Assembly (NCBI GenBank): GCA_963727445.1
Contig: CAVSGI010000009.1
Coordinates: 874,599 to 938,598 of the forward strand
DNA: 64,000 nt
From: an uncultured delta proteobacterium
GTDB taxonomy: Bacteria > Myxococcota_A > Polyangia > Polyangiales > B10-G4
Reading direction: 5' to 3'
A program made the translations under genes and the position numbers. The notes below the pieces were generated by a model, which made no database searches, was not told the DNA's origin, and saw only the letters and a program-made list of their open reading frames with translations. Below, piece after piece: positions 4,888-64,000 of the stretch; the first letter of the stretch is position 1, and each line of letters opens with the position of its first letter.

Positions 4888-6236
<1,349 letters not shown>

Positions 6237-6240
<4 letters not shown>

Positions 6241-7994
6241 CGCAGGTCTTCGATGACCCGCTCCCGGGCCCCCGCACCGACCTCTACCACGGCGCTCCCC
6301 GGCGCGCTGAGCGAGGGGTTCTCGAAGCGCAAGCGATGCCGCCCCGCCGAGACTTCGTATCCCTGGATCGGGGTGGTGCCGATGGGTCGTCCGTCGACGA
6401 AGACCGTCGACCACGGGTTGGTGTTGATGTCGAGGAGCCCCGTCTCCCGGGCGCCGCGCACCTCAGCGCGCCGACCTCCCATTTCCGTTCCCGTTCCCGT
6501 TCCCGTTCCCATTCCCGCATTCGGTGTGGACGCAGTCGGCAGAGGCCCCTCTCGTTGGATATCCGGCCGTGGCCCTTCACCCCGGTGGGGTTCGTCCGCG
6601 TGGTCCGCAGGAACCGTCTCCGCCTCCGATCTCGCCCCCGGCACGGCCAACGCCTCGGCCTCGGCCTCCCCCCACGTCCTCGCCACGAAGAGGGTCATCG
6701 CCGCGAGCGCCACCAGCACCAGAGTCAGCGCGGCGTAGAGCCGACCGCGGCCACTCGGCGGCAGACGCGGAGCGTCCTGCTCACGCTCCTGGCTCCACTT
6801 CGGCGTCGGTTCGGGCTGGGGGGCCGGCTCCGGTCGTGCTTCGTTCACGGGGGGGGCCAGAGCCGCGCTCTCGGCGGTTCGATAGACGCTGAAGGGCTCG
6901 TCGGTGGGGACGGGCGCGAGCTGCATGCCCAGAAGGGCGTCGAAGGCCGCGCCGGTGTCGTTCTGTTGCGCGGGGATGGCCGGCATCGCCAGCTCGGTGG
7001 GAGCGAATGAGATGTTGTTCATCCGAACCGTCATCCCCGACCGAAGCGTCACCAGCTGCTGGCGCTCCTCGTCGACGACGGTGCGCACGAAGTCCGCCAG
7101 GTCGGCCGTCGACAAGAGGAACGCGCGCTTCATCGCGTGACGCTCGAGCTCCTGGCGCATCGCTGCAGCGGAAGGATGGCGGTCCGCGGGGTCGGGGGCG
7201 AGCGCGCGCATCACGATGGACTCGAGCTCCTCCGCGATCGCGCTCGTGAGCTCGCGGGGGCGCGGAAAGCGGCCCTCGAGGATGGCCGGGATCGAGGAAG
7301 GGTCGTCCTCGGCGATCGGCGGTCGCCCCGTCAGCATCTCGTAGAGCACCGCGCCCAGCGAATAGAGGTCGGCCCGCGGGTCCACCACCTCTCCGCGCAG
7401 CTGCTCGGGCGCCATGTAGGGCAGCTTCCCCTTCACCTCGCCCGCGATCGACGCGCTGTCCTTCATCGTGCTCTTGGCGATGCCGAAGTCGGCGACCTTC
7501 ACCTCGCCCTCGAAGGAGATCAGCAGATTGCCCGGCGAGACGTCGCGATGGACGATCGACAGAGGCTCGCCTTCACCGGACGTTCGCCGATGCGCGTAGT
7601 CGAGGCCCTTGAGTGCCTCGACGGCGATCAAGATGGCGTGGCGGTGCGGGATGGGTTGCGCCAGGCGGTCGAAGCAGATCGAGATCAGATCCGCGAGATC
7701 GATCCCGTCGACGAACTCCATCGCCAGAAACCACCGCTCGTCGATGCGCCCCACGTCGAAGGCGGTGACCACATTGGCGTGGCTCAGGCTCATCGCCACC
7801 TTCGCCTCCTCGACGAAGAGGCGCTCCATCGCCTCGTCCATCGAGAGCGCGGGCCGCACCACCTTCAGCGCCACCGGCTTCTCGACGCCCAACGACTCCA
7901 TCACCGCTTGATAGACCTCGCCCATCCCGCCGGTGGCGATGCGGCCCACGATGCGATAACGGCCGGCCGCCCTCTGCGGAAGCAAGGAGCTCAC
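6237..7994 (-). CDS. Ser/Thr protein kinase with TM helix and C-terminal PEGA-like domain
   Basis: [42 protein letters not shown] start inferred. Confidence 0.9.
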
Positions 7995-40157: not shown

Positions 40158-41834
<1,677 letters not shown>

Positions 41835-41982
41835 GCCGCCCCTCTCCGACCCGGCGGGGACGTCGTTCACTTTTGACGCAACCCAGGCGAGCGCGATCGA
41901 ACGCGGGTCGTTGCCGGATCGCGCGACCCGCGCTGGTCAAAAGTGCACTGCGTCCCCTTCCAACGTCCTTGGGGGGGACGCA

Positions 41983-42161
41983 CGGATTCGGAGTTCGGAT
42001 TCGGAGTTCGGATTCGGAGTTCGGATTCGGATTCGGAGTTCGGAGTTCGGATTCGGAGTTCGGATTCGGTGTCGGATTCGGATTCGGATTCGGAGTTCGG
42101 TGTCGGATTCGGATTCGGAGTCGGGGGCGGGTTCGGATTCGGAGTTCGGAGTTCGGATTCG
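41983..42161. repeat. Short tandem repeat of mixed CGGATT / CGGAGTT / CGGTGT units
   Basis: Directly visible. Confidence 0.95.
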
Positions 42162-42166
42162 TGATC

Positions 42167-42229
42167 GGACCCTGAGGTGCGTGGTGTTGCTCATGGGGGG
42201 TATGAGCAACACCACGCACCTCAGGGTCC
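42167..42229 (+). promoter_or_regulatory. Perfect 28-bp inverted repeat whose right arm is the first 28 nt of the four-helix-bundle ORF
   Basis: GGACCCTGAGGTGCGTGGTGTTGCTCAT-GGGGGGT-ATGAGCAACACCACGCACCTCAGGGTCC. The regulatory role is inferred. Confidence 0.8.
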
Positions 42230-42540
42230 TTCGGGATACGATCCAAATCATTCGGGAGCTTCGGCCGGTCATCGGGCGGCTGAAGAAGCGGAACGCGAAG
42301 CTAGCGGATCAGCTGGAGCGGGCCGCGACGAGCAGCGCGTTGAACCAGGGCGAAGGGAATGCGATGCGGGGCGGCAATCGCCGCAAGCACTTCGACATCG
42401 CGCTGGGCTCGACCCAGGAAGTGAGGGTCGCCCTCGAGACGGCGGCGGCCCTCGGGTACATCCCCGACGAGATCGTCACCCGATTCGATCCACGACTCGA
42501 CTCGATCTGCGCGCGGCTGTATCGGCTCGCAGGGTATTGA
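42202..42540 (+). CDS. Four-helix-bundle protein (23S rRNA IVP-like family)
   Basis: 112 aa; LADQLERAATS-ALN-GEG...HFDIALGS-QE...LGY pattern. Confidence 0.85.
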   Translation: MSNTTHLRVLRDTIQIIRELRPVIGRLKKRNAKLADQLERAATSSALNQGEGNAMRGGNRRKHFDIALGSTQEVRVALETAAALGYIPDEIVTRFDPRLDSICARLYRLAGY

Positions 42541-47088: not shown

Positions 47089-48120
47089 ATGAGCAAGACG
47101 TTCATTGCAGCGGCCCTCCTCGCGCTTGGAACGGCGTGCAGCGGGCCGCCTGCGACGAACGACGCGAGCATGCCCGACGGTGGAGCGGGTGACGCGGGGA
47201 CGACAGGTTTCCTCACCGTGAGCAGCGTACACCGCGGAAACTGTGCCCTTCATTCGTCGAGGCGCGCGGTGTGCTGGGGGGACATCAACCCGGATGGTTT
47301 CTGGATCGACGATGTCGACGAGGCGGAAGCCGGCTTCGGGCCCTGCTTTCTTCGGGGTACGACGGCGATGTGTTTCAGGGTGGCGGACCTCGGCATGCAA
47401 CCGTGGCCCGTCCCCCCTGCGGACTACCGAATGGTAGGCGCCGGCAACGCCCAAGCGTGCGGGCTCCGCACGGATGGGTCCGCGATTTGCTGGGACGCGG
47501 CCGGGCGCATCTACGACAATGATCCAATCTACACCGAAAGGTTCTTGAAGATCCGAGTCGATTGGGCGTTGGCGTGTGGGATCACCGAGTCCGGAAGCGC
47601 CTCGTGCTGGAACATTGGTATCCCTCCCGAGACGTTGTTTCCTGCACCGCTTCCCGGCGACGAGTACATCGATGCCAGCAACGATGGTTTCTCTTCGTGT
47701 GGAATCAATCTAGCCGGTGAGGTTCGGTGCGCGCCAGGAATCTGTCGCGTGGACGGGGCCACCGGCGAGACGACCTGCAACGAGCCGACCTTCCCAGCCG
47801 CCGACGGCGGGCGAGAGACGTGGTCCGAAGCCGCGGGCGATCCGCCGCCCGGGCCGTTCACGAAGATCTCCATGATGGCAGATGCCAGAAGCGCGGGTCT
47901 TTGCGCCCTCAGGCCCACCGGTGAGGTCGTCTGCTGGGGCCGGGCGTACGAGATGTACCTGCGCGACACCGAGCCTCACGGCGTCTTGTTCCGCGACATC
48001 GCCACAGGTTCCAGTCACGCCTGCGGCGTCACTCTCGACGATGGCGAGATCCTCTGCTGGGGCACCGCGCCCCCCGGCCAGGACTTCGGCCAGACGCGGC
48101 CCCCGCCGCCAGGGCCGTGA
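47089..48120 (+). CDS. RCC1-like repeat lipoprotein
   Basis: GGAGG RBS, GTAC lipobox, repeated ACG...CWG units. Confidence 0.75.
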   Translation: MSKTFIAAALLALGTACSGPPATNDASMPDGGAGDAGTTGFLTVSSVHRGNCALHSSRRAVCWGDINPDGFWIDDVDEAEAGFGPCFLRGTTAMCFRVADLGMQPWPVPPADYRMVGAGNAQACGLRTDGSAICWDAAGRIYDNDPIYTERFLKIRVDWALACGITESGSASCWNIGIPPETLFPAPLPGDEYIDASNDGFSSCGINLAGEVRCAPGICRVDGATGETTCNEPTFPAADGGRETWSEAAGDPPPGPFTKISMMADARSAGLCALRPTGEVVCWGRAYEMYLRDTEPHGVLFRDIATGSSHACGVTLDDGEILCWGTAPPGQDFGQTRPPPPGP

Positions 48121-48991: not shown

Positions 48992-49438
<447 letters not shown>

Positions 49439-49586
49439 GCCGCCCCTCTCCGACCCGGCGGGGACGTCGTTCACTTTTGACGCAACCCAGGCGAGCGCGA
49501 TCGAACGCGGGTCGTTGCCGGATCGCGCGACCCGGGCTGGTCAAAAGTGCACTGCGTCCCCTTCCAACGTCCTTGGGGGGGACGCA

Positions 49587-49744
49587 CGGATTCGGAGGTC
49601 GGATTCGGAGGTCGGATTCGGAGGTCGGATTCGGATTCGGATTCGGTGTCGGATTCGGATTCGGATTCGGAGTTCGGTGTCGGATTCGGATTCGGAGTCG
49701 GGGGCGGGGGCGGATTCGGAGTTCGGATTCGGAGTTCGGATTCG
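49587..49744. repeat. Short tandem repeat of CGGATT / CGGAGGT / CGGAGTT units, copy 2
   Basis: Directly visible. Confidence 0.95.
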
Positions 49745-49784
49745 TGATCGGACCCTGAGGTGCGTGGTGTTGCTCATGGGGGGT

Positions 49785-50123
49785 ATGAGCAACACCACGC
49801 ACCTCAGGGTCCTTCGGGATACGATCCAAATCATTCGTGAGCTTCGGCCGGTCATCGGGCGGCTGAAGAAGCGGAACGCGAAGCTGGCGGATCAGCTGGA
49901 GCGGGCCGCGACGAGCAGCGCGTTGAACCAGGGCGAAGGGAATGCGATGCGGGGCGGCAATCGCCGCAAGCACTTCGACATCGCGCTGGGCTCGACCCAG
50001 GAAGTGAGGGTCGCCCTCGAGACGGCGGCGGCCCTCGGGTACATCCCCGACGAGATCGTCACCCGATTCGATCCACGACTCGACTCGATCTGCGCGCGGC
50101 TGTATCGGCTCGCGGGGTATTGA
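49785..50123 (+). CDS. Four-helix-bundle protein, copy 2 (hairpin at 49750-49812)
   Basis: Protein identical to 42202-42540. Confidence 0.85.
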   Translation: MSNTTHLRVLRDTIQIIRELRPVIGRLKKRNAKLADQLERAATSSALNQGEGNAMRGGNRRKHFDIALGSTQEVRVALETAAALGYIPDEIVTRFDPRLDSICARLYRLAGY

Positions 50124-50238
50124 GCGGGGCTCGCGAATGGCGTCCGCCGGCGGCCCGGCGGCGGATCGCCGATTCGGCGGCGCAACTGCCGACAATCACT
50201 GACCGTGATGCGGGCACAGATGTTGCCGAGCCGCGTGC

Positions 50239-51703
50239 GTGCAGCGCCTCTCGTCGACGTCGCGGAAGTATGCCCGCCGCGACCGCGAGCGCTCCGCTCT
50301 GCACCAGACGGTCCGTGAGCACCTCGAGACGTTCCTGGCGGAGACCCGGACCACGGACCGGGACGGCGTCGGTGTTCCGGCTTTCGTCGAGGCTGAGCTC
50401 CGGCGCTTCCTCGAATGCGGCGTCCTCGCTCATGGCTTCGCGCGCTTTCGCTGCGACGCGTGCGGCACGGACCGCCTCGTGGCGTTTAGCTGCAAGGGTC
50501 GCGGTTTCTGCCCTTCCTGCGGCGGGCGCCGCATGACCGCGCAGGCGGCGCACCTCGTCGACGAGGTCCTACCACCGGTCCGCATGCGGCAATGGGTGCT
50601 CAGCCTCCCCTTCGAGCTCCGCTATCGTCTCGCCTTCGACCACGAGCTCAGTCGCGCCGTCCTCGCCGTCTTCACGCGGGCGATCTTCGGCTTCCTCCGG
50701 GACCGCGCGAAGAGGCGCGGGCATCCAGGAGGTCGCGCAGGCAGCGTCACGGTCATCCAGCGCTTCGGCGGCGCGCTCAATCTCAATCCGCACTTCCACA
50801 CGCTCGTCCCGGATGGGGTGTTCCTCGAGGCGCCGGATGGATTCGGTCCGCTTTCACCGCCTCCCGCCCCCGACTGACGAGGAGGTCGCGGCCCTGCTCA
50901 CCACCCTCGTCGCGCGTCTGCGGCGCCTGTTGATCCGCCGCGGCGTCTGGCGGGAGGGCGACGACGGAACGGACTACGTCGATCCCACCCTTCACGAGCG
51001 CCTCGGCGCCGCCGCCATCCAGCAGGTCGCGCTCACCGGTCCGCGGGCACTTCTCTCCACGCGCCGCATCCGGACCGCTCCGCCCAAGACGTCACCGAAA
51101 GTCCTCGGCCGCCGCCGCGCCCGCCAGGACGGATTCGACCTGCACGCCAACACCGCCGTGCGCGGCAAGAACCGCCCGCGACTCGAGCGCATCTGCCGCT
51201 ACCTGCTCCGGCCCCCCGTGTCGGAGTCGCGCATCGAGCGGCACGGCGATCGTGTGCTGCTCACTCTGAAGACCCCCTACGATGACGGCACCACGCACCT
51301 GAGCTTCGAGCCCACCGAGCTCCTCGGGCGCCTCGCCGCCCTCGTCCCCCGCCCTCAGAAGAATCTCCTCCTCTACCACGGCGTCTTCGCGGCCAACGCG
51401 AAGCTGCGCAAGCAGGTCGTCGCGTACGGGCGTCCCTCCGAGCCAGGCAAGGGCCCGAAGCACAGCACGTCCAAACGCAAGCGTCACAACCCGAGCTGGG
51501 CAGAGCTCATGCGTCGCGGCCTCGACATCGACGCGCTCGAATGCCCGAAGTGCCACTCCCGCATGCGCTTCGTCGCCTCAATCCTGAGACCGGCCACCAT
51601 CCGCCGCATCCTCGAGAGCCTCGACCTGCCGGCAGAGCCAGTCGTGCCCGCCCCGGCGCGCGCACCGCCCAACGACGACGACCTCTTCTTCGACGTCGCC
51701 TGA
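50239..51703 (+). CDS. IS91/ISCR-family HUH transposase, frameshifted near 50842
   Basis: Zn-binding GFARFRC..C...SCKGRGFCPSCG, HUH motif NPHFH, LERICRYLLRPP, CPKC and PARAPP. Confidence 0.9.
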
Positions 51704-51790
51704 GCGGCTCCGTTCGAGTCGTCGACGTCGCGATCCGTCCGCCGCTCGACCCTCGCCTGAAGATCGGGTCATCATGCCTTTCATGCCCCG

Positions 51791-51915
51791 TCCGGTTTCC
51801 AGCCTCCACGGAAGCCAACCCCTTCACCGGACGCCCGAGTTTCGCAGTAGGTATGATCTGTCGACTCGCGCCTCCGGCGGGAGTGGCGGGAGGCCGTTTG
51901 TGATGGCTATCCACA
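51791..51915 (+). repeat. 125-bp ori-like unit, copy 1 (uninterrupted)
   Basis: Identical to 54496-54613 + 56025-56031 and to 58984-59101 + 60513-60519. Confidence 0.95.
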
Positions 51916-52145
51916 ACCGACGACCTTCGGGTTATGAGGTGAAAAAATGGGTCGATCGGGTGGGTGGTGGAAGTGCTTGGGATTGCTTGATTTGCGAAAT
52001 GATAACTAGGAGTTGGGCTGCATCGCCGTGTCACGGGACGTCACGCGAGATCACGTCATCGCCCGAAGTCATGTCAACCACATGTCACCCCTGACCCCTG
52101 GGATGTGGGATTCAGGCATTCCAGTGGGGTCCCAGCGCGGACGAA

Positions 52146-53312
52146 CTATGAACCTTGGGGGATGCGTTGCGGAAGATGAGTGCCGACGAGCTCACCCCAG
52201 CAGTACATTTCCTCGTCGGTGGTGAGGGCACAGGAGGACTCGTCGGAACAATCGAGGTCGATAACTGGTGGCAGACCGTCCACGAGTTGCGGTGTGATTT
52301 CACATGAACGCCCGCCGCATGCATCTCGCCGCACCGGGGGGCTGGAGACTTGTCCGTACGTGTTCCTGCCCCAGCAGTAGACGTTCCCGCGTTCTCCCAA
52401 GGCACAACTATGCTCGGCTCCCGCGCAGACGGCGCCTACAGGTTCCGCAACTGTAGGCGTGACCAGCTCGACCGAGAAAGCAGTCGTCTCCCCATTTCCT
52501 AGCTGCCCCGAGTTGTTGGCTCCCCAGCACAGGATCCCCGTGGATCTTGCAACGCACACATGGCGCTGACCAATTGCCATGTCTTCGATCCCATTGAGCG
52601 CCATGACAGATTCTGTTCGATACAGAGTCTCTTCACCAACGCACGCAGGTTGGCCTTGGTCGTTCCAGGAACACGACAGTCGTGGTCCCAACTCGATGCC
52701 AGTACCAGGCGCAGCTTCAGGCAGTCGGAACGGCGAGTCGCCAATGCACCGAACGCCGACGGTGCTTCCTCCGCAGGAGAGTTGTTCTGACAAAGAGATG
52801 TGGGCGACACCGAACAAACCTTCAACCTGGACCGGCGTTGTAGCGCATGAGAACTCGCTGCCGTCAACAAGGCAGCGCTCGCTCGCGCGGTCACCAATTT
52901 GACTCCAACGATCGCTACCCCAGCACGAGACGACGCCGTCGTCGAACTGGCTGCAGGTGTGAAACCTGCCCGCAGCCATCTGGCTGGCAATGTCAACGAG
53001 CGGAACAGGCACGAGCATCGGTGACGCGACTCGATCTCCCTGGCCAAGTTGCCCGGCCCAGCTGTTTCCCCAACAAAGGACACGCCCCTCGCCGTTGAGC
53101 ATGCAGGAGTGCTCCGCCCCCATCGAAATCGAGGCAGTGAGTTCCAATGGGAGGGGCTGCGAAGGCTGCGAACAACCGAGAGCAAGAAACAACATGGGTA
53201 CGAGGACGGGCGCCTTGGAGCTGCCCGGCCAGCCTCCCCTAGGTGCAGGAGTGGTCGCCGCGTGGTCCGCACGCGAAGGGCTAAAGTAGGAAGGACGCGA
53301 AGCGAAGATCAT
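52146..53312 (-). CDS. RCC1-repeat lipoprotein (cargo 1); alternative start at 53195
   Basis: CWGNSWAGQLG and CWGANNSGQLG repeats; ALGC lipobox. Confidence 0.8.
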   Translation of the reverse strand: MIFASRPSYFSPSRADHAATTPAPRGGWPGSSKAPVLVPMLFLALGCSQPSQPLPLELTASISMGAEHSCMLNGEGRVLCWGNSWAGQLGQGDRVASPMLVPVPLVDIASQMAAGRFHTCSQFDDGVVSCWGSDRWSQIGDRASERCLVDGSEFSCATTPVQVEGLFGVAHISLSEQLSCGGSTVGVRCIGDSPFRLPEAAPGTGIELGPRLSCSWNDQGQPACVGEETLYRTESVMALNGIEDMAIGQRHVCVARSTGILCWGANNSGQLGNGETTAFSVELVTPTVAEPVGAVCAGAEHSCALGERGNVYCWGRNTYGQVSSPPVRRDACGGRSCEITPQLVDGLPPVIDLDCSDESSCALTTDEEMYCWGELVGTHLPQRIPQGS

Positions 53313-54145
53313 CGGCACGCGCTTAGCACGTCAGCGAGCGAAGCGTCCAAACCGGCTCGAGTGCCGGCTCCGCTGACCGTCGCTTCGGTAACCTGTGCCT
53401 GCCAGATGAGCTGCCGTGGTTCAGTTAGGCCCGATAGCAGGAAGAGTCCCTGCTGGCCTGATGGGGGAAGTCCAGTCTGAGGTACGAACGCAGTGGCGGG
53501 CGGGTCCCAGCGTGGATCGATGTATGGTGCACCACGTGCATCCGACCAGTACGCCGCAGCAGTGAACCCCTCAACGAGAACACCATCTGGCACGTCAAAA
53601 CCATGGTCGTCAATTACTTGGAGCGTGGCGCTCTCTCTTCCGAACGCCATGTGGACATCAAGGAATGACGGCTCGCGGCCCACGTGGGGATCGGCCGTGG
53701 TCAGAGAGCCTGGTGTGACCTCGGCAAGCACGCAGGCGTCCACCTCACGAGCAGCGCTCTCAAGACTATCGGGAATGAGCGGTCCCACGTACTCGGGATC
53801 GACGCTGACGATGATCCGTTCACGGTAAAACGTCGTGGGGCACCCTTCGTCCTGAGACTCAATGGCTACGGCCCGGTATTCAGATTCATAGCCCGGTGCG
53901 GTTATGACCAGCTCGTAGGTCCCGGCGGGCGGCATGTCGAACTCACAGTAAACATCTGCGTCGATCCGACAGGGCCCGAGCTCTACAGAGGCTTGGGCGC
54001 CCACTTCGTCTGCTCTGCGGCCATCCTCCATCGTTGCAATACCCGCGAACACGTAGCCACAGTAGCCCCCGTCGCCAGGCTCACAGGCAAGCGCTCCGAG
54101 GAGAAACAACAACGCGCTATGGCTCCTAGCGCCGATGTCGATCAT
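53309..54145 (-). CDS. Hypothetical lipoprotein (cargo 1)
   Basis: Signal ending ALAC; start inferred. Confidence 0.6.
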   Translation of the reverse strand: MIDIGARSHSALLFLLGALACEPGDGGYCGYVFAGIATMEDGRRADEVGAQASVELGPCRIDADVYCEFDMPPAGTYELVITAPGYESEYRAVAIESQDEGCPTTFYRERIIVSVDPEYVGPLIPDSLESAAREVDACVLAEVTPGSLTTADPHVGREPSFLDVHMAFGRESATLQVIDDHGFDVPDGVLVEGFTAAAYWSDARGAPYIDPRWDPPATAFVPQTGLPPSGQQGLFLLSGLTEPRQLIWQAQVTEATVSGAGTRAGLDASLADVLSACR

Positions 54146-54493
54146 CCCGAACAGCCTGACGCGGAGAAACTCCACCTCGGGTACGGCACAACGAGTACAG
54201 GCTCTCATTTCCTCGGTGACCAATGGGTTCATCTTCTTCGCGAAGCACGCAGTGCGACCCCTCCTCGCAGTCTTGAGCAGCGCGACACGAGAGATGTCTA
54301 AGTAGCACGCAGTGTCCCAGCGCGCACGCCTCCTCCCCCTCGCAATCTCCGTCCGAACGGCAAGGTGCACACACTCCATCGATGCATGCGCGCGCGCCAC
54401 CGCAGGGATACGCAGAACCACAGTGGACTTGCATCGTCTCGTTGAAGAGACGTCCCTGCCACTCCCCCTCTTCGCGCGGGCGAAGCTCCGGCG
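54126..54493 (-). pseudogene. Cys-rich protein fragment with its 5' part cut off by the repeat unit
   Basis: CIDGVCAPCRSDGDC...CALGHC frame runs into the unit at 54494. Confidence 0.65.
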
Positions 54494-54613
54494 GCTCCGG
54501 TTTCCAGCCTCCACGGAAGCCAACCCCTTCACCGGACGCCCGAGTTTCGCAGTAGGTATGATCTGTCGACTCGCGCCTCCGGCGGGAGTGGCGGGAGGCC
54601 GTTTGTGATGGCT
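54494..54613 (+). repeat. Ori-like unit, copy 2 (interrupted by IS1111; last 7 nt at 56025-56031)
   Basis: Identity with 51791-51908. Confidence 0.95.
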
Positions 54614-54638
54614 TCTGTGAAGCGGCCACCCCGGTCAA

Positions 54639-54900
54639 CAGGTTTGTCTGATTTTCGTTCTACGTCGTTGCACGTCTCCTTCGCCTCGGCTCGGGTTCGT
54701 CGTTTCGCTCATACGTGACGGGTTGTTCAGCCTTCTGTTCGCGCTCGACTGGGGCGGCATCGAGGCCGCGGCGCAGGGTGGGATTCGGTGGTGGTCGGCG
54801 CCATCTATCCATCGGCGTTCGACAGCAGCCAGCCAGCACATCGCGCTCGACCACCATAATCGGTTCCCTTCACGAAGAGCGGGTCATCGTCGGTTGCGGG
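54639..54900 (-). ncRNA. Putative bridge/seek RNA of IS1111 copy 1; ends approximate
   Basis: Stem enclosing segments that match both sides of the target site, plus a separate donor-matching segment. Confidence 0.7.
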
Positions 54901-55932
54901 TCAGGCTGCAGCAGCCTCCTCACGGCTCGCTGTCGCCTCGAAGCGCGTCCCGTCTCGCCACATCGCGTACAAGATCCCCGCGAGCTTGCGCGCCAGCGCC
55001 ACCGCCGCGATCCGCTTGCCGCGGCGTGCGGCGATGCGCTCCGTCCAGTCGCGTAGCGCCTTCGTCTCCGGTCGTTTGTGACGCAAGATCCCCCAGGCCG
55101 CTTCGACGAGCAGCGACCTGAGACGGCGATTGCCGGTCTTCGTGATGTGGCCCCGCATCCGTTTTTCGCCAGAGCTCAGCTCGCGGGGCACCAGGCCGAG
55201 GTAGGCGCGCACTTGTGAGGCGTTGTGGAAGCGACCGATCTGGTCGACCACGGCGACGAAGGTCACCGCCGTCACCGGCCCGATGCTCGGCACGGTGCAC
55301 AGGCGTTCGACGGTCTCGTCGCCCTTGGCGAGCTCGGCGAGGCGCTTGTCGGCGTCGCGGATCTGCATGGTGAGCTGCTCGAGCATCGTGAGCAGCGGCG
55401 CGACCTCGAGCGCCAGGTGGGCGGGCAGTGACAGCTCCTCGATGCGCGCCGCGAAGGTCGCCGCTCCGCCGCTTCGTGGCGACAAGCCCTCGCGCCGCAC
55501 AAGCGCTCGGGTGAGCGAGATGTACTTCGTTCGCGTGCGCACCAGCGCATCACGCACCGCGACCTGCGCTCGCCGATGACGGGCCGCGTCCGAGGCGCGG
55601 TGCGCTGGGCGGTACGCGCCGAGCCGGCAGGCGTCGCAGAGCGCCCGCGCATCGCGCCGGTCCGTCTTCACCTTGCGGCTTCGCGTGGCATACATCGGCG
55701 CGAAGTTCGGGTCCGCCACGATCACCTCATGGCCCAGCTCCTCGAGCCACCGCGCCACCCACTCGCTGTCCGTCGACGCCTCCATCAGGATCTTCGCCCG
55801 GGCGCGGTCCGCGAACACCTTCGCCAGCGCATCGCGCGTCGTCGCCACGCGCCGCTCCCGCAGCTCTCCCTCGCTCGTCTGGATGCAGACCTGACTTGTC
55901 TTCTTGTGAACATCGATGCCAATGTGTTCCAC
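54901..55932 (-). CDS. IS110-family recombinase/transposase
   Basis: IGIDVHK, MEA, KTDRRDA (DEDD) and YLGLVP...SSG. Confidence 0.95.
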   Translation of the reverse strand: MEHIGIDVHKKTSQVCIQTSEGELRERRVATTRDALAKVFADRARAKILMEASTDSEWVARWLEELGHEVIVADPNFAPMYATRSRKVKTDRRDARALCDACRLGAYRPAHRASDAARHRRAQVAVRDALVRTRTKYISLTRALVRREGLSPRSGGAATFAARIEELSLPAHLALEVAPLLTMLEQLTMQIRDADKRLAELAKGDETVERLCTVPSIGPVTAVTFVAVVDQIGRFHNASQVRAYLGLVPRELSSGEKRMRGHITKTGNRRLRSLLVEAAWGILRHKRPETKALRDWTERIAARRGKRIAAVALARKLAGILYAMWRDGTRFEATASREEAAAA

Positions 55933-56031
55933 GGCTGGCCTCCACTCTGCGGCTCTTGACCGCGTTTACGGTTGTGGGGCTACGGCTACCACGTCAGTGG
56001 CGGCCAGCCGCTTACATCCCATCTATCCACA

Positions 56032-56676
56032 CCAATACCCCATTCGCTTGACGTGCCAGTCCAACATCTCCAGCACGCGCACCTCCATCTCTGCTGCAGG
56101 TGCGCCATGCTTCAACGCCTCAACTACGCTGGCGTGGGGTGTTTCGGGGCGAGCGACTGAGTAGGGCCGGCGCCCGAACTTCATGCACGCGAGATCGACC
56201 GCCAGCTGCCCTAAGGCCAGACCCTCTTCGCCTGCCAAGTTGATAATGGCGGCACGTCGGCACCGCTTCTCATCCGCAATTAGCTCACCGAGTGGACTAG
56301 AGAACGAAGCAGGAAGGAGCGTGGAAGCTGCACACCAGGTCAGACCCAACGTTGAATAGGTCGAGACCTGCATCTGCTTGTGTCCCCACCCGGCATGTTG
56401 GGCACCGCTTTGAAACGCGTCGATGAACAGAGTTGTCTCAGTCTCGAGCATCGCCCACTGACGCAGCTCGCGCCAGGCCGTCTCCGGATGTTCTTTAAGC
56501 TGAAGGAGCGCCGAGGTGATGAACCGTGCGCTCGCCCAATGCCTGAACGCCATCGCGGCTGTTACCAGACCGCCCTCGCTCTCAGCCGCATATACCTCGG
56601 TCTCGAACTCGAGGAGGTCCAGGCTCGTCGCCACGCGTTGGACGTGGCCCAATTGGCGCGCGATGCTTCGGGTCAT
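56032..56676 (-). pseudogene. Hypothetical protein, 3'-truncated at the ori end (cargo 2)
   Basis: The ORF terminates only inside the repeat/IS junction. Confidence 0.6.
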
Positions 56677-56873
56677 CAAGGGGTCCTGTTCCGTCGTCGT
56701 TGAGCTTCAACATTGCGCTGAGCTCTTGCTACTTCTGCCCGGAACTTTCTGGTGACCTCTGTGCGGGAGTAGCGGCCGGTAGGGCCACGATTCATCTCGT
56801 AGACACGCGTCCGGACGGCACTGCTGGTGTTGTAATTCGATAACTCGATCACGTAAGCCGTAAGAGTATGGGT
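56676..56873 (-). pseudogene. C-terminal gene fragment coupled (TGATG) to the downstream gene
   Basis: Frame ...THTLTAYVIELSNYNTSSAVRTRVYE...RRNRTP* has no start within the cargo. Confidence 0.45.
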
Positions 56874-56890
56874 GCTCCGGTTTCCAGCCT
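56874..56890 (+). repeat. 17-bp stub of the unit's left end
   Basis: GCTCCGGTTTCCAGCCT matches 54494-54510 and 58982-58998. Confidence 0.8.
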
Positions 56891-57189
56891 AACGGCAACG
56901 ACACCGTCTCACCGGACCCCGCTGTTTCCGAGAAGATACGTTGTGTAATCTCGGGGTCAGGCCGGAGGCCGTTCATGGTGACTACGAGCTAGCGGGTCCC
57001 GTTGTATTTGTATATCGGCGTGCGATGAAGTTTCCGACGTCTCGGATGACCCAACCGGCGTCCCGTCAACGGCGTTGGGAACGGCGCAAGACGCGACAAT
57101 TCGGCACATGCTGACTCTAGTGGTGGGTTGCGGGGAACGAGGATCGCCGCCAAACTTCGATGGCACGCATCTTGGGATCTTCGCGACAC

Positions 57190-57762
57190 ATGGACAGGAT
57201 TCAGGTCACCGCACTCCTCTGGCTTCTCCTCAGCGCCTGCAGCATGGAGTCGCATTCGGCCGATACCGGAACTACACGCGCCGACACCGGAGCTATACGC
57301 ATGGACGGAGCACTCGACGCGCCGTCGCCGACCGATGCGCCGACCGATGCGCCCGAAGGCTCGTTGACGTGCGACGCCAGTCTGTACCACCGCCCCTGCG
57401 GTGAGCCCAACACGTCGTATCACCAACGCTGTGCCCAGGAGTGCGTCTGTCCCTACTTGCTGTTCGAGGTGTGCGACGTCGACGAGGTCGGCTCCTGCGG
57501 CCGGACGCTCAGCTTCTGTGAGGCCGTCGAGGTCTTCACGTTCTGCGCCGGCCCTCGAGACGGCGCGTGCGACTGGCGCATCGAGTTTCGTAGTGGGCGA
57601 TACGAGTGGGCGCACTCGGATGTGGTCGAGAGCGGCGAGTACACCTGCGACGGCACGACCGTCACGAGCGACATGTACGAAGGCTCCTGGGATGGCGTTT
57701 GGCAGAGCCTCGTCTGGGACGGTGTCCGCTATCAGGCGGTCCCGCCGGAGTGCACGCCATGA
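57190..57762 (+). CDS. Cys-rich lipoprotein (cargo 2)
   Basis: Lipobox LSAC. Confidence 0.7.
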   Translation: MDRIQVTALLWLLLSACSMESHSADTGTTRADTGAIRMDGALDAPSPTDAPTDAPEGSLTCDASLYHRPCGEPNTSYHQRCAQECVCPYLLFEVCDVDEVGSCGRTLSFCEAVEVFTFCAGPRDGACDWRIEFRSGRYEWAHSDVVESGEYTCDGTTVTSDMYEGSWDGVWQSLVWDGVRYQAVPPECTP

Positions 57763-58397
57763 GCCAGCAGTCAGTCGACGCCCTCGCGCGCGCATCTGTG
57801 TTCCTCACCTTCGTCGCATTGCTTGCAACGCCCATGGGATGCGCCGGATCTCACGACGCGCGCCCGGACGGTCGCATCACCCTCGACAGCAGCATGGATG
57901 GGCCCTCGATGGACTCGGCGCCGGGCGACAGCGCCACCGACGGCCCCTCGATGGACTCCGCGCCGCGCGACACGTCAATGGATGGACCCGACGCCGGATC
58001 GCTGCCGACGCTCGAGGAGATGCAAGCCTGCGCGGTCGACAATGATTGCGTCGCAACATTCAGCCGCTGTTGCGAGTGTGGCGCGGACGTCGATACGCTC
58101 ATCGGCATCAACATGGCATACGTGGACGCCTATCGCGCGGACCTCTGTGCCCCATACCTCTTTGGCTGCGATGGGTGCGCCGGCCCCGTGGCCGGGGTGT
58201 TCGAACTTTGGGCTGCCTGTGTGGAGGGAACGTGCGAAGCCGGCATCTTGGAGTGTGCTGATGCGTATGACTGCATGCCGAGAGGCGCGTGCATCCTTCG
58301 AGATGCGTGGTCTTCGCGTGTCTGTTCGCTCTTCTGCTCGACCGATGACGAGTGTCGAGACAGCCAGCGGTGCGTTGGGTGGGCATGCACACCCTGA
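57759..58397 (+). CDS. Cys-rich lipoprotein (cargo 2)
   Basis: ATGA overlap; PMGC lipobox; duplicated DGPSMDSAP linker. Confidence 0.7.
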   Translation: MSQQSVDALARASVFLTFVALLATPMGCAGSHDARPDGRITLDSSMDGPSMDSAPGDSATDGPSMDSAPRDTSMDGPDAGSLPTLEEMQACAVDNDCVATFSRCCECGADVDTLIGINMAYVDAYRADLCAPYLFGCDGCAGPVAGVFELWAACVEGTCEAGILECADAYDCMPRGACILRDAWSSRVCSLFCSTDDECRDSQRCVGWACTP

Positions 58398-58446
58398 TGA
58401 AGCAGCCGCTCTTGATCCCGGGCGCGCGGCTTCGCTAGAGTGGGAG

Positions 58447-58981
58447 TGACCTGCCCTTGAAATTTCGGACCATCTCAAAGTTGTAGAATCGCCTCTTCGG
58501 GACCCCGGAGAGCACATGAGAAAGAGTCGATTTACCGAAGAGCAGAAAGTGAAGATGCTGCGCGAAGCGGACAAGACTTCGGTCGCCGTGGTCGCGAAGA
58601 AGCACGGCATCAGCACGGAGACCATCTACAAGTGGCGCCGAAATTTCGGCGGCATGGACGTCGCGGACGCGAAGCGGCTCAAGAAGCTCGAGCTGGAGAA
58701 CGCGCGGCTGAAGAAGCTCCTCGCCGAGCGCTCGCTCGAGGTCGAGGTGATGAAAGAAATCAACGCAAAAAAATGGTGAGCGTGCCGGCACGCCGCCAGC
58801 AGGTGGCGTACGCCCGCTTGCGGGGCGTTTCATGCCGGCGCGCTTGCGGCCTCGTGCACGTAGCGCGGTCGGCGCTCCGCTACGAGTCGAAGATGGACAA
58901 CAAAGACAGAGCGGTGGTCGCGCGGCTGTGCGAGCTCGCAGCGCGCTACCCGCGCTGGGGCTACCGCCGCATCCGCGTGAT
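58447..58981 (+). mobile_element. Truncated IS3-family element (left IR, orfA, start of orfB)
   Basis: Left end TGACCTGCCC...; A7 slippery site at 58767-58773; orfB (RYPRWGYRRI) is cut by the repeat unit. Confidence 0.88.
58516..58779 (+). CDS. IS3-family transposase OrfA
   Basis: MRKSRFTEEQ...TIYKWR...LELENARLKKLLAE...KKW. Confidence 0.92.
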   Translation: MRKSRFTEEQKVKMLREADKTSVAVVAKKHGISTETIYKWRRNFGGMDVADAKRLKKLELENARLKKLLAERSLEVEVMKEINAKKW

Positions 58982-59101
58982 GCTCCGGTTTCCAGCCTCC
59001 ACGGAAGCCAACCCCTTCACCGGACGCCCGAGTTTCGCAGTAGGTATGATCTGTCGACTCGCGCCTCCGGCGGGAGTGGCGGGAGGCCGTTTGTGATGGC
59101 T
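58982..59101 (+). repeat. Ori-like unit, copy 3 (interrupted by IS1111; last 7 nt at 60513-60519)
   Basis: Identity with the other copies. Confidence 0.95.
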
Positions 59102-60512
59102 TCTGTGAAGCGGCCACCCCGGTCAACAGGTTTGTCTGATTTTCGTTCTACGTCGTTGCACGTCTCCTTCGCCTCGGCTCGGGTTCGTCGTTTCGCTCAT
59201 ACGTGACGGGTTGTTCAGCCTTCTGTTCGCGCTCGACTGGGGCGGCATCGAGGCCGCGGCGCAGGGTGGGATTCGGTGGTGGTCGGCGCCATCTATCCAT
59301 CGGCGTTCGACAGCAGCCAGCCAGCACATCGCGCTCGACCACCATAATCGGTTCCCTTCACGAAGAGCGGGTCATCGTCGGTTGCGGGTCAGGCTGCAGC
59401 AGCCTCCTCACGGCTCGCTGTCGCCTCGAAGCGCGTCCCGTCTCGCCACATCGCGTACAAGATCCCCGCGAGCTTGCGCGCCAGCGCCACCGCCGCGATC
59501 CGCTTGCCGCGGCGTGCGGCGATGCGCTCCGTCCAGTCGCGTAGCGCCTTCGTCTCCGGTCGTTTGTGACGCAAGATCCCCCAGGCCGCTTCGACGAGCA
59601 GCGACCTGAGACGGCGATTGCCGGTCTTCGTGATGTGGCCCCGCATCCGTTTTTCGCCAGAGCTCAGCTCGCGGGGCACCAGGCCGAGGTAGGCGCGCAC
59701 TTGTGAGGCGTTGTGGAAGCGACCGATTTGGTCGACCACGGCGACGAAGGTCACCGCCGTCACCGGCCCGATGCTCGGCACGGTGCACAGGCGTTCGACG
59801 GTCTCGTCGCCCTTGGCGAACTCGGCGAGGCGCTTGTCGGCGTCGCGGATCTGCATGGTGAGCTGCTCGAGCATCGTGAGCAGCGGCGCGACCTCGAGCG
59901 CCAGGTGGGCGGGCAGTGACAGCTCCTCGATGCGCGCCGCGAAGGTCGCCGCTCCGCCGCTTCGTGGCGACAAGCCCTCGCGCCGCACAAGCGCTCGGGT
60001 GAGCGAGATGTACTTCGTTCGCGTGCGCACCAGCGCATCACGCACCGCGACCTGCGCTCGCCGATGACGGGCCGCGTCCGAGGCGCGGTGCGCTGGGCGG
60101 TACGCGCCGAGCCGGCAGGCGTCGCAGAGCGCCCGCGCATCGCGCCGGTCCGTCTTCACCTTGCGGCTTCGCGTGGCATACATCGGCGCGAAGTTCGGGT
60201 CCGCCACGATCACCTCATGGCCCAGCTCCTCGAGCCACCGCGCCACCCACTCGCTGTCCGTCGACGCCTCCATCAGGATCTTCGCCCGGGCGCGGTCCGC
60301 GAACACCTTCGCCAGCGCATCGCGCGTCGTCGCCACGCGCCGCTCCCGCAGCTCTCCCTCGCTCGTCTGGATGCAGACCTGACTTGTCTTCTTGTGAACA
60401 TCGATGCCAATGTGTTCCACGGCTGGCCTCCACTCTGCGGCTCTTGACCGCGTTTACGGTTGTGGGGCTACGGCTACCACGTCAGTGGCGGCCAGCCGCT
60501 TACATCCCATCT
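59100..60512 (-). mobile_element. IS110-family (IS1111 group) element, copy 2
   Basis: Offset 4488 from copy 1; two substitutions noticed (59728, 59820). Confidence 0.92.
59389..60420 (-). CDS. IS110-family recombinase/transposase, copy 2
   Basis: Same as 54901-55932 except one L-to-F change. Confidence 0.95.
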   Translation of the reverse strand: MEHIGIDVHKKTSQVCIQTSEGELRERRVATTRDALAKVFADRARAKILMEASTDSEWVARWLEELGHEVIVADPNFAPMYATRSRKVKTDRRDARALCDACRLGAYRPAHRASDAARHRRAQVAVRDALVRTRTKYISLTRALVRREGLSPRSGGAATFAARIEELSLPAHLALEVAPLLTMLEQLTMQIRDADKRLAEFAKGDETVERLCTVPSIGPVTAVTFVAVVDQIGRFHNASQVRAYLGLVPRELSSGEKRMRGHITKTGNRRLRSLLVEAAWGILRHKRPETKALRDWTERIAARRGKRIAAVALARKLAGILYAMWRDGTRFEATASREEAAAA

Positions 60513-60603
60513 ATCCACATGAGTCGGTGGCAACCTCGGTCTCCTGCCGCTCATGCCAAGGAACGCAGTACAGCAACCGCGGGGTCGGTGTAAGGGTGAC
60601 GCC

Positions 60604-61473
60604 ATGACTGCTCGGATCCTCTGTTCGATACTGCTGGGCCTATTGCTCGTTTCCTGTCCGGCCGATGATCCCGGCACGGACTCCGCCCAGCCAGATGCGG
60701 CAGCAGACACGGGTCCCACGGAGTGCCCGCCGCACCTCCCGTTTCGCTTCGGCGACTCGTGCTGCCAGTTCGAAGATGGGTCGGCCTGCGAGCAGATCTG
60801 GTGTGGAGTCGAGGAACCGTGGATACCATGGGACAACCGGACCCCCCTGTGGTGGTCGGCCGACGAGCCGGCGAGCTGCGCTGACACGCTCTCGCACTCT
60901 CCGCCGCAGCCATACGATGATTGCTACACGGGGGCCGACCCCAAACTCTGCGGCTTGCCGCACTCCGGCGCGCTCGAATGCATCGGGTACTGGGCGATTA
61001 CCTGTGAGTCGAGCATCGACTGCCCAGTGGACATGGGGTGCACCTATCACTCAACCGAGGGCCTGATCGAAACGCCAGAAGAGGTGCCGCTCGGCGACGC
61101 AATCTGGGGACATTGCGTGAAGCGGTGCACTACGGTCGGTAGCTCCGACGAGTGCATCCGCTGTGATCAGGTCTGTCAGGACGGGGGCTTCTGCGACGCT
61201 CAAGGGCTGCTGCCAGGACACACGTGCGTGGCCGATTGCGAGTGTTGGGATGTGGTTGACCCAGCCACCGGCAGCGCCGTCTGCAACGGCGGTCGCTGCT
61301 ATCCGGGCCGGGGTCGCCCGCGCGTGGGCCTCTGCGGTGAAGGCCACGACTGTGGCTGCGTCGGTGGCACATGCGAGGAGCATCCCGAGGGCGGATGCTG
61401 CAGGCTCCCCGACGGCACGATCGCTGAACCGGAGTCAGAAGCGTGCGGCGGCCCAGATGCAGGGGTGCCGTAA
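60604..61473 (+). CDS. Cys-rich lipoprotein (cargo 3)
   Basis: Lipobox LVSC; many Cys residues. Confidence 0.72.
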   Translation: MTARILCSILLGLLLVSCPADDPGTDSAQPDAAADTGPTECPPHLPFRFGDSCCQFEDGSACEQIWCGVEEPWIPWDNRTPLWWSADEPASCADTLSHSPPQPYDDCYTGADPKLCGLPHSGALECIGYWAITCESSIDCPVDMGCTYHSTEGLIETPEEVPLGDAIWGHCVKRCTTVGSSDECIRCDQVCQDGGFCDAQGLLPGHTCVADCECWDVVDPATGSAVCNGGRCYPGRGRPRVGLCGEGHDCGCVGGTCEEHPEGGCCRLPDGTIAEPESEACGGPDAGVP

Positions 61474-61570
61474 GAACGGCCGGCACCCGGGTGGTCCGCA
61501 AGGCGCGAGCTTACCATTGGCTCTACCCGGCGGGCACCACGGTCCGATGGACGTCGAGATCGAGCGTGCC

Positions 61571-61636
61571 GAGGTTGCGCTGGAGCGCCACGCCCGAGCA
61601 CCGCCGTGAGAGATCCCTCTTCACGGCGCGCGCTCG
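61571..61636 (+). repeat. ~65-bp imperfect direct repeat with hairpin, copy 1
   Basis: Similar to 63773-63836; stem CGCCGTGA...TCACGGCG. Confidence 0.85.
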
Positions 61637-61645
61637 ATCAGCTCG

Positions 61646-62521
61646 TCAGCTCCCCGCATCGCCAGCGCACGCGCCCGGGTGAGCGATACTGACGCGAGCG
61701 CGTGCTGCCCAACACTCGTGCGCATACGTCAGACCGTCGCATCCACAGACCGGATCCAGCAGGCCCTCGCAAGACGGATTGTCGAGGGCGCAATATCCGA
61801 GTCCGCCGCATCCCTCTACCAGGTCGCAGAAGAGGTCGCCGCAGTGGGCGTCGGTTCGGCACGGCCAGAAACTCCCGGCCGGCGGCAGCACGCAGCAGTC
61901 GGGGCAATCGGCGGGGAGGCACAGGTTGGTGATCAAGCAACAGGACCCACCGGAGTCGCAATCACCGTCGTCTCCGCAGGTGCGGGGCCACCCTGGTTCG
62001 GGGCTGCTGCCGCAGGCACCCCGAGCACCCGGGCGTACGCCGGCGTGGGCCGCGTCGCAGAACCCTGGATAGGTGTTTCCATCACAGGCACAGTACTCGG
62101 GTGAGCAGCCGGGATCCGGTCGCCGCTCGCATGTTCCGGGGCCAAGGCAGTACTCCCCAGCGCAGTACTCTTCGGGGTCGCAGTCGGCGTTCGACGCACA
62201 AGCGTCTGGCCCTTCGGCCCGGCACGATTCTGGTGTCGCGGGATCGAAGCACTCCCCGGTGAGGTAGCAGCATTCTTCACCGGGGAGGCACGGACTGCCC
62301 CCACATCGAAGGGGCATCCTTGGGACTGAGGTGTCCGCAGGCGTGGCATCCGGCACGAGAGGATCTAGGAACGTGTCGGGCCCGACATCCGCATCCGCGT
62401 CCATCGGAGGAGTGGCATCGGCGTCGGAAGGACCGATGTCTGGGTCCATGTGGCTCGAACCGCATCCTCCGATCGTCACCAGCGCGACAACGAGGAAGGG
62501 TGTGATGATTGCCCTACGCAA
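61646..62521 (-). CDS. Cys-rich lipoprotein with Kazal-like modules
   Basis: PVCGCDGLTYAHEC...HPGAC and CACDGNTY; IGGC lipobox. Confidence 0.75.
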   Translation of the reverse strand: MRRAIITPFLVVALVTIGGCGSSHMDPDIGPSDADATPPMDADADVGPDTFLDPLVPDATPADTSVPRMPLRCGGSPCLPGEECCYLTGECFDPATPESCRAEGPDACASNADCDPEEYCAGEYCLGPGTCERRPDPGCSPEYCACDGNTYPGFCDAAHAGVRPGARGACGSSPEPGWPRTCGDDGDCDSGGSCCLITNLCLPADCPDCCVLPPAGSFWPCRTDAHCGDLFCDLVEGCGGLGYCALDNPSCEGLLDPVCGCDGLTYAHECWAARARVSIAHPGACAGDAGS

Positions 62522-63047
62522 CCTGCCAGATACCCTTTAGGCGAGACGCCGTGCCGCTGTCCGCGGGTAGGGTACACCACAGGTTATTCCAACCGTAGGA
62601 TGCCTTGTCCACGTTTACGAACTCCAAATATCCGGATCCGGTCCAAGACGCCGGAAACGACGCACAACCACCAGAAGTTGAACAGAGGAACTTGGTGGAC
62701 TCGTTGTATGTGACACTGCCGCTGTAGTTCGAGCTGTACTGGTTGCAGTACAAGCTGTGCTGCATCAGGGACCCGGCATTGTTGTCCGTTGCCCACACGG
62801 TGATGTCGTCGGTGGAACTGGACGACACGTCGTTCTGTTCCGGTAGTCCGCACGAAATCTGGGCGCCTGCGGACGCGGAGCCTTCGTAGTCGATCCATCC
62901 ATAGTTGGCCGGCACCATCGCGTCATCCGTCCATTGACACGCATTCGACGGTGGAAACATCGTTTGCTCGGCCGCAGCCGGGCTGTTTGTTGCCAGCAAG
63001 CCGGCAAGGAAGCCGACGGCGATAGACACTAGAGCAACTCTCTTCAT
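62514..63047 (-). CDS. Secreted hypothetical protein
   Basis: GGGAGG RBS; signal peptide ending AAA. Confidence 0.7.
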   Translation of the reverse strand: MKRVALVSIAVGFLAGLLATNSPAAAEQTMFPPSNACQWTDDAMVPANYGWIDYEGSASAGAQISCGLPEQNDVSSSSTDDITVWATDNNAGSLMQHSLYCNQYSSNYSGSVTYNESTKFLCSTSGGCASFPASWTGSGYLEFVNVDKASYGWNNLWCTLPADSGTASRLKGIWQVA

Positions 63048-63086
63048 GGGTCCTCCCTTTCTCAGTCTGGTCGTTGGGCCTGTAGG

Positions 63087-63712
63087 TTAGAAATCCGGAA
63101 GACGTTCGTCCCCCGTTATCAGGAAGTGCGTCGTGGTGAAGGCGCCTCCCTCCTCTGTTCGAAGCTGGACGCCCTGCTTTCCAAAGATGGGGGTTCGGGC
63201 CTCGTCCACGATCAGCTGCTGGATCGCGTCTGGCGTCTCGTGCGTGTACTGAACTCGACAGAACGCCGGGCCGCATGCGATGTCGCGTACGGCGATCCCT
63301 GCAGGCTCATGCGACGTAGAGTATTCGTGTATCGCCCACTCTACCTCCCTCTCATACCTGGCGTTACGCGGCGCTGCCGGGAGGATGTCGTCCAGGTACT
63401 CGAAGCGTCGAGCGACGCGCTCCTCGTCGTAGCGAATCCTTCCTCCAGCGTCAGTCGCTGAGGTTCAGGCGGCCGTCGGGTCTCAACGTCCTGCCTCGTC
63501 GTCTGAGGGAAGAGGCCCGCGTCACTGGGCCGAAGCGCAGATGGCGGGCCAGCGGCTGGCATCACGGCAGTGCCGCGCCAAGAAGGGGACGGCGCGGCCA
63601 TTTCGGCCGACTCAGTCGGGTTCTCCTGCAGGAGACGAGCTGTCAGGCCTCCCGCAAAGGCACCCGCGAGCGCTCCGACGACGCCGACGACCAGCTTGCT
63701 CCCCCCGTGCAT
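63087..63712 (-). CDS. Hypothetical protein with N-terminal TM helix, frameshifted near 63430
   Basis: GGAG RBS; the second frame continues DEERVARRFEYL...IACGPAFCRV...LPDF*. Confidence 0.55.
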
Positions 63713-63772
63713 ATGCTCCTTATGCCAGGACTTCGACCGCTACGGAATACGGGATATTACGTACGCGCTGTT

Positions 63773-63836
63773 GAGGTTGCGATGGCGCGCCAGGCCCGAG
63801 GGCCGCCGTGAGATCCCCCTTCACGGCGTGCGCTCG
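63773..63836 (+). repeat. ~65-bp imperfect direct repeat with hairpin, copy 2
   Basis: Similar to 61571-61636. Confidence 0.85.
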
Positions 63837-64000
63837 CATATGGTGAATGAGTAGCGACGTCCCCCCAGGTTAACCCCCTGCAGTCCGTCGCCCCGCATGA
63901 CGGCATGGATCTCGAAACCCTCCTTCGCCCGTCGAAGCGGAAGTAGAAGTGAACGGCAACGCTCTGTCTGACACTCTCTGAGAGTCACGTCTCGGGCTGA

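Follow-up and report, generated by a model that had tools for sequence, protein, structure and literature searches.

In the 64,000-nucleotide stretch of an uncultured delta proteobacterium analysed here (the window; contig CAVSGI010000009.1 of assembly GCA_963727445.1), two insertion sequences (IS) of the IS1111 group occupy the same CT dinucleotide in two copies of a short repeated unit which, on sequence grounds, is the origin end (oriIS) of an ISCR-type HUH transposon, and a third copy of this unit, beside the transposase gene, retains the empty target. The elements were very probably led to this CT by a bridge RNA predicted in their right ends, as this RNA would pair with one allele of the origin (ori). 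A first-pass annotation of the window had noticed the shared site; the probable cause, which it overlooked, is a guide RNA covarying with the target, one ori allele per variant of the element.

Insertion sites in the window

The core CT of the empty target lies at 51907-51908 and is read as GTGATGG-CT-ATCCAC; the core CTs of the filled sites lie at 54612-54613 and 56023-56024 for one copy and at 59100-59101 and 60511-60512 for the other. Both inserts measure 1,409 bp core to core, with 2 positions differing between them, and the 118 bp 5' of the core are the same in the three window units (family D5). The first-pass annotation of two elements at one CT, with the empty target also present and with the flanks that it gave, agrees with ours to the base. 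It had placed the core 7 nt from the unit end, a distance corrected here to 6 nt: the conserved end is CT-ATCCAC, the A that follows is common only to the three window sites, filled sites outside the window continue as ATCCAC-C and ATCCAC-T, and ISCR1 and ISCR2 likewise terminate 6 nt past the CT. A fourth, diverged and unfilled unit (56876-56989) was absent from that annotation. The empty 14-mer GTGATGGCTATCCA has three exact occurrences in 9.47 Mb, namely two ori units and one chimeric joint, a pattern that is not due to chance. The features of this region are as follows.

50239..51703, + strand: ISCR-type HUH (IS91-like) transposase gene, in two frames (Pfam Zn_Tnp_IS91, Y2_Tnp)
51791..51914, + strand: oriIS unit beside the transposase, empty target, core 51907-51908
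54496..54613, + strand: solo ori unit 1 up to and including the core CT (118/118 match to the transposase-linked unit)
54614..56022, - strand: IS1111-group element copy 1, variant A
54617-54626 and 56007-56017: subterminal inverted repeats of copy 1, imperfect
54633..54638, - strand: TTGACC, predicted -35 half of a circle-junction promoter (from the sequence; function by analogy with IS110 elements)
54710..54860, - strand: core of the bridge (seek) RNA predicted for copy 1 (consensus fold, guide-target covariation)
54840-54831, 54811-54805, 54784-54777 and 54738-54732, - strand: predicted left target, right target, left donor and right donor guides of copy 1
54901..55932, - strand: IS110-family DEDD recombinase, 343 aa (PF01548, PF02371 and NF033542 over cutoff)
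56023..56030, + strand: second core CT and final 6 nt of ori unit 1 (ATCCAC)
56876..56989, + strand: diverged solo ori unit, allele ATGGTGA-CT-ACGAGC, unfilled (nhmmer E 1.6e-10)
58516..58983, + strand: IS3-family remnant, truncated where the following solo unit begins (HTH_Tnp_1, NF033516 partial); no second copy was found in the genome
58984..59101, + strand: solo ori unit 3 up to and including the core CT (118/118 match)
59102..60510, - strand: second IS1111-group element, also variant A, with its recombinase at 59389-60420 and its RNA core predicted at 59198-59348
60511..60518, + strand: second core CT and final 6 nt of ori unit 3 (ATCCAC)

The target as the origin end of an ISCR-type transposon

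Compared with the intact copy on contig C10, the HUH transposase gene of the window contains an additional base near 50841, either a true lesion or a long-read error, and its product scores below the NCBIfam thresholds of both ISCR clade Ia and IS91. The gene is intact on C10 and C24; PF14319 and PF04986 are over cutoff in the intact copy P0004, with HFH at 185-187, and the intact transposase is 42% identical to that of ISVsa3/ISCR2 and 40% to that of ISCR1. The unit end of the window (GGCCGTTT-GTGATGG-CT-ATCCAC) aligns without gaps with the ends of ISCR2 (GGGCGTTT-ATTCTTC-CT-ATACGT) and ISCR1 (GGTGGTTT-ATACTTC-CT-ATACCC), both of which were set by flank divergence in two plasmid records each, and the distance from the end to the stop codon is 211 nt here, 235 nt in ISCR2 and 232 nt in ISCR1. 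Since both the end register and the distance from the stop fit those of ISCR1 and ISCR2, the unit is identified by sequence as an ISCR-type oriIS, and the first-pass proposal that it is a common functional site is thus borne out.

A profile search of the genome returned 51 unit matches, 4 of them adjoining a transposase gene or its remnant; most unit copies are therefore solo miniatures. They start sharply at TCCGG, which is preceded by C in 30 of 31 cases (counted by eye, omitting 5 units in which the element's own upstream base is retained and 5 whose match begins at model position 2). This is consistent with miniature right-end derivatives such as those described for IS801, where short ori-end fragments of 229, 360 and 679 nt with a fixed left end are mobile in trans (PMC3189936); unlike the IS801 derivatives as reported there, the units found here are about 124 nt long, mosaic and present as some 50 matches in one genome, with at least 9 alleles of the 7-mer preceding the CT. 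Upstream homology stops at differing points in C9, C10 and C24, and no shared target tetranucleotide was found after the ori ends. The bottom strand of the unit folds at -31.9 kcal/mol, a value computed without a shuffle control.

The DNA between units had been taken for a cassette array, a description that the sequence does not support: the window spacers (4/4) are without a full second copy in the genome, and wherever a homologue was found the 5' end of the unit cuts it and the remainder does not follow (6/6). On C12, a segment enclosed by two units matches a stretch of C20 at each of its ends. The same cargo at several places together with clean empty sites, as expected of an integron-like array, is not found.

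The IS1111-group element and its predicted bridge RNA

The inserts are IS1111-group elements with an IS110-type recombinase, as the first-pass annotation had stated. The enzyme scores 273.9 bits against NF033542 (cutoff 140) and combines a DEDD RuvC-like N-terminal domain (residues D7, E51, D91 and D94) with a Transposase_20 C-terminal domain carrying the serine motif at 253-254, its relatives in the PDB being ISCro4 and IS621. About 290 nt of non-coding DNA lie downstream of the gene and about 90 nt upstream, and the subterminal inverted repeats ATGTAAGCGGC / GTGAAGCGGC are imperfect and 10-11 nt long, the published norm being 11-13. The extensions of copy 1 comprise 3 nt on the right (54614-54616) and 7 nt on the left with the core counted, in keeping with the hallmarks given for the group in PMC11187229 (a downstream non-coding region and subterminal repeats with 7- and 3-nt extensions). 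The predicted -35 motif TTGACC is located 19 nt inside the right end. A plasmid search returned closest recombinase relatives of less than 38% identity, Rfam matched nothing in 49000-64000, and the only other genome of the family gave no match at E 1e-60.

The right non-coding end is predicted to hold a bridge RNA with guides for the target and for the element's own ends, in the order left target, right target, left donor, right donor. In variant A, the one present in the window, the left target guide TGTGCTGGCT matches the left target plus core TGTGATGGCT at 9/10 positions and the right target guide TGGATAG matches the right target (ATCCA) at 7/7; the left donor guide ATCCCACC matches the left donor at 7/8, with the mismatch at position 7, one reported as tolerated in IS621 (PMC11208160), and the right donor guide ACAGAAG matches the right donor at 7/7. 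The AU after the right target guide would pair with the donor's end, a handshake type of pairing described as favouring insertion in IS621 (PMC11208160, PMC13626964). A consensus fold places both target guides facing each other across an internal loop, and the donor guides flanking a hairpin without a firm outer stem; it was built from homologous regions, of which 61 out of 81 could be excised and 59 were distinct.

Allele-restricted filling and guide retargeting

Full-length copies number 8 in the genome; five belong to variant A and three to variant B, and the two variants share 91% DNA and 95% protein identity. All 8 are inserted at a CT in one orientation relative to the target, both flanks being readable in 7. 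Variant A sites read TGTGATGG-CT-ATCCAC and variant B sites C(A/G)TGGTTA-CT-ATCCGC. The first-pass view that the IS specialises on the ori is upheld in the genome at large: most copies do not lie in unrelated sequence, since 7 of the 8 carry ori-unit sequence on their left. A truncated copy at G000:C11:34731-35233, whose guide is lost, ends in a further allele, CT-ATCAAC, and is split by a palindromic repeat of 87 bp, relatives of which occur on C27, C6 and C17.

The guides of variant B, CATG(T/C)TTACT and CGGATAG, match C(A/G)TGGTTACT at 9/10 or 8/10 and ATCCG at 7/7, and crosswise left guide matches between A and B drop to 5/10 or 6/10. Differences between the variants concentrate in the guides: 6 of the 10 in the 151-nt RNA core fall within 17 guide bases (p 1.3e-4), and for the other B copy 5 of 9 do so (p 9.6e-4). 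The guide changes from A to B approach the new target at all but the tolerated position.

Of 35 candidate ends, 7 lacked a CT end at the offset where it was expected and one, a filled C24 copy, was dropped because its right flank runs off the contig. Among the 27 ends kept, those matching a guide were filled in 7 of 10 cases and the remaining ones in none of 17 (p 1.4e-4), a match being defined as a perfect right guide with at most two left mismatches, by a cutoff chosen after the data had been seen, and the copies compared being related and so not independent. Units that share the hairpin and carry a one- or two-base change in the guide-read half are unfilled (0/4 for ATCAG, 0/6 for ACCCG), and the diverged window unit, also unfilled, has 4 + 4 mismatches to guide A and 2 + 3 to guide B. 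Many other ori alleles thus appear to stay empty because each variant reads only its own allele.

Homologues in other genomes and metagenomes

Homologous loci were collected from genomes (79) and metagenomes (80), of which 46 and 49 could be parsed. In the two sets the left guide matches its own flank at 7.5/9 and 7.7/9 positions, compared with 4.4 and 4.2 after permutation, and the right guide at 5.6/7 and 6.2/7, compared with 3.8; such scores were reached in none of 5,000 permutations, although kinship inflates tests of this kind. An earlier, stricter parse of 35 of 82 loci gave a concordant result. Public runs X2 and X3, whose contigs are taken as one case, contain a third variant in which the guide CATGTTGACT stands beside the flank GGCCGTTC-ATCGTGA-CT (8/10, by eye), and 5 of the 6 changes listed for 54780-54890 fall inside guides. 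Circle or excision joints were not seen in the public runs, which were covered as assembled contigs of related strains (word shares 0.05-0.12).

A genome of the same order, G031, has its own 170-bp unit, and there the allele GAACCGA-CT-ATCCGC is filled in 3 of 4 cases and six other parsed ends are empty (locus L009 is the same element and is not counted separately). All three IS copies of G031 have a 106-bp tandem duplication of the right end (L197:5081-5200, G031:C4), which begins at the right donor guide, a sequence identical to the end of the element itself.

In a quick, unfinished homologue tree a sister branch of the IS lineage (support 99) is found, mostly in Gemmatimonadota, at sites that we take to be attC-like, a label assigned by eye; it includes L029, L049, L056, L061, L063, L065, L067, L069, L071 and L072. 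A single origin of ori targeting is unsupported, the ori-like rows falling in two parts of the tree with other targets between them. At loci L015, L032 and L054 a convergent HUH gene lies 266-336 nt from the IS end. Among 77 HUH loci none had this IS at the ori and one gave a weak IS110 match, a pattern search having recovered the ori motif in just about 10 of these loci. Identical foreign sequence follows directly after the IS right end at L038 and L064, which suggests a second element inserting there, and L098-L108, L135 and L136 belong to one chromosome, on which ISCR-like HUH copies are numerous and lie together in some 100 kb.

The copy outside an ori unit

To the left of the eighth copy (C11:5169, 5169-6585) lies a fragment of an AHH nuclease gene, and the left target is made up of codons of that fragment. 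The same 1,065 bp is found on C21 with an empty site (C21:1209-1223, L083), where the empty 16-bp target joins the broken AHH gene to an unrelated broken RCC1-repeat gene through ATCCAC. The simplest reading would be an off-target hit followed by exchange of flanks between IS copies and later precise excision, so that the joint on C21 may be the scar of an excision after flank exchange; a strain mixture in the assembly may alternatively have produced the pair. The 1,065-bp segment was also considered as ori-mobilised cargo, a reading rejected because the segment ends in AHH coding sequence, whose match to the left target is fortuitous.

Weighing the guide-RNA reading against its rivals

Several points weigh against an RNA that directs the element to ori alleles. 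Besides the late choice of the matching cutoff and the relatedness of the copies, 3 of the 10 matching sites are empty, including the transposase-linked ori of the window; the filled C24 unit that was dropped resembles the never-filled ATCAG type; the left guide is mismatched at one position in every case; and the copy at C11:5169 has AHH coding sequence and no unit on its left. Among the homologues only 24 of the 95 parsed sites are ori-like by a matrix that was trained on 11 HUH-linked ori ends and is confined to the 9 bases that the guide largely does not reach, and a convergent HUH gene is not commoner at the ori-like sites (2/19 vs 2/46, p 0.57), so that it failed as independent proof of ori targets in the homologues.

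The shared sites could also be explained by descent, a single IS entry having been followed by copying of the ori+IS composite by the HUH enzyme, with no block of mobilisation. The window units are indeed identical over 118 bp with IS copies only 2 positions apart, the three copies in G031 share unit, IS and the 106-bp end duplication at 99%, and the terminal CT-ATCCAC outlives insertion, the hybrid end of G031 scoring 3.4 on the ori matrix. Some unit-IS pairs may therefore have been copied as composites, but as the sole cause co-mobilisation is unlikely: variant A occurs in at least three unit backgrounds and at the AHH site, variant B in two, the guides track the alleles, and the hybrid end of the window scores -8.6 on the matrix, the empty ori +12.6. 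We regard it as less likely still that the ori hairpin, single-stranded DNA or the HUH complex attracts the recombinase and that the RNA merely fine-tunes the choice. The recurrence of ori-like targets, under differing guides, at separate places in the tree, the sites that we take by eye to be attC-like in sister lineages and the predicted fold of the unit would fit such structure-led targeting, whereas the hairpin-sharing units left unfilled after one or two changes in the guide half, and the copy at C11:5169, where no hairpin exists, speak against it. A misassembly of 1.4-kb repeats, with the shared flanks representing one locus copied, has hardly any probability. Several copies do have indels (C24, C11) and C22 overlaps C11 at 99.8% over 2.5 kb, so that strain mixtures may be present, but the copies differ in private substitutions, in two variants and in their outer flanks, and the pattern repeats in G031 and in independent contigs.

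Proposed mechanism and consequences for the origin

With the guide-RNA reading retained, the bridge RNA encoded in the right end would base-pair with the terminal 15-16 bases of a single ori allele. By analogy with IS621 and ISEc11 as described in PMC11208160, PMC13626964 and PMC11187229, the element would excise as a circle whose junction forms a promoter, and would recombine without a scar at the CT, excision being weak. Insertion would move the upstream motif and its hairpin 1.4 kb away from the nick end. In published work the functional ori of IS91 is the last 82 bp with palindromes (PMC13181058), and insertion would probably block mobilisation from the filled ori, which would remain silenced until a rare precise excision. 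Mimicry of the ori by the IS left end was considered and rejected, given the score of -8.6 and the presence of the same end in attC-type relatives.

It is tempting to speculate on an arms race in which the ori varies the bases read by the guide and the IS rewrites its guide allele by allele, acting as a reversible lock, and in which recombination between IS copies together with precise excision would reshuffle the DNA between origins; we consider this doubtful. The ori ends beside the intact HUH genes on C10 and C24 are non-target alleles and the one with the target allele has a split gene (n=3). Against an arms race weigh the hairpin, which is as variable as the guide-read 7-mer (15 units), and the three perfect targets that remain empty.

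Relation to known systems

The RNA-guided recombinase chemistry itself is already known. As in ISEc11, ISKpn4, ISPst6 and ISPa11 (Siddiquee et al. 2024, PMC11187229), the element combines a DEDD enzyme of about 340 aa, a long downstream non-coding region, subterminal repeats with 7 + 3 nt extensions and a fixed orientation, with the top-strand match 5' of the bottom-strand match and natural reprogramming. Unlike those elements, for which the paper gives attC, REPs (repetitive extragenic palindromes) or a linear site as targets, the target here is an ISCR oriIS; the natural retargeting pair ISEc11/ISXne4 described there is 72% identical, compared with 95% here, in one genome and for two alleles of one end. 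Allele-by-allele retargeting among near-identical elements in one genome is what is new.

With IS621 (Durrant et al. 2024, PMC11208160; PMC13626964) the element shares the CT core, the layout of left and right target guides (LTG, RTG) and donor guides (LDG, RDG), the tolerated mismatch at donor position 7 and a handshake-like AU matching the donor's last two bases; IS621 differs, according to these sources, in belonging to the IS110 group, in carrying its RNA in the left end and in its REP target, and its recombinase is only distantly similar (E 3.6e-16). IS4321/IS5075 (Partridge and Hall 2003, via PMC5034289 and PMC11187229) likewise place an IS1111 element in the functional end of a mobile element, there reported as the 38-bp inverted repeat of Tn21-family DDE transposons, here a rolling-circle origin. 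ISCR1 and ISCR2/ISVsa3 resemble the host transposon in HUH transposase identity (40-42%), in the register of the ori end and in its distance from the gene. An IS1111 element in an ISCR/IS91 origin was not found in the papers searched; supplements, subscription papers or ISfinder notes may list such a target.

Rolling-circle origins would thus join attC, Tn21 ends and REPs as mobile-element sites parasitised by IS1111 elements, and the CT used is conserved in ISCR1 and ISCR2, movers of resistance genes. The insertions would also mark the solo origins as real, maintained sites. Three near-identical recombinases with natural guide differences offer a ready test of the guide rules of the group, that is, one tolerated mismatch position, the tenth left base and a strict right half.

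Further observations

At G000:C12:47464-47628 an ori unit is end-joined into the outermost 51 bp at the left of an IS, so that the rolling-circle element hits the IS too. Short tandem duplications of the terminal motif occur at several ori ends (C11:32786-32915, C12:24532-24660 and L207). A stretch duplicated in the window at 41388-42358 and 48992-49941, the latter just before the HUH gene, holds the 3' part of a gene of ABC type together with a hexamer repeat (CGGATT/CGGAGT) and a short open reading frame, with more copies on C12 and C21. The spacers at 57160-58397, 60553-62521 and 47089-48120 have a G+C content of 0.60-0.64 vs 0.69 and encode cysteine-rich, apparently secreted proteins, with one weak Kazal match and one RCC1 repeat.

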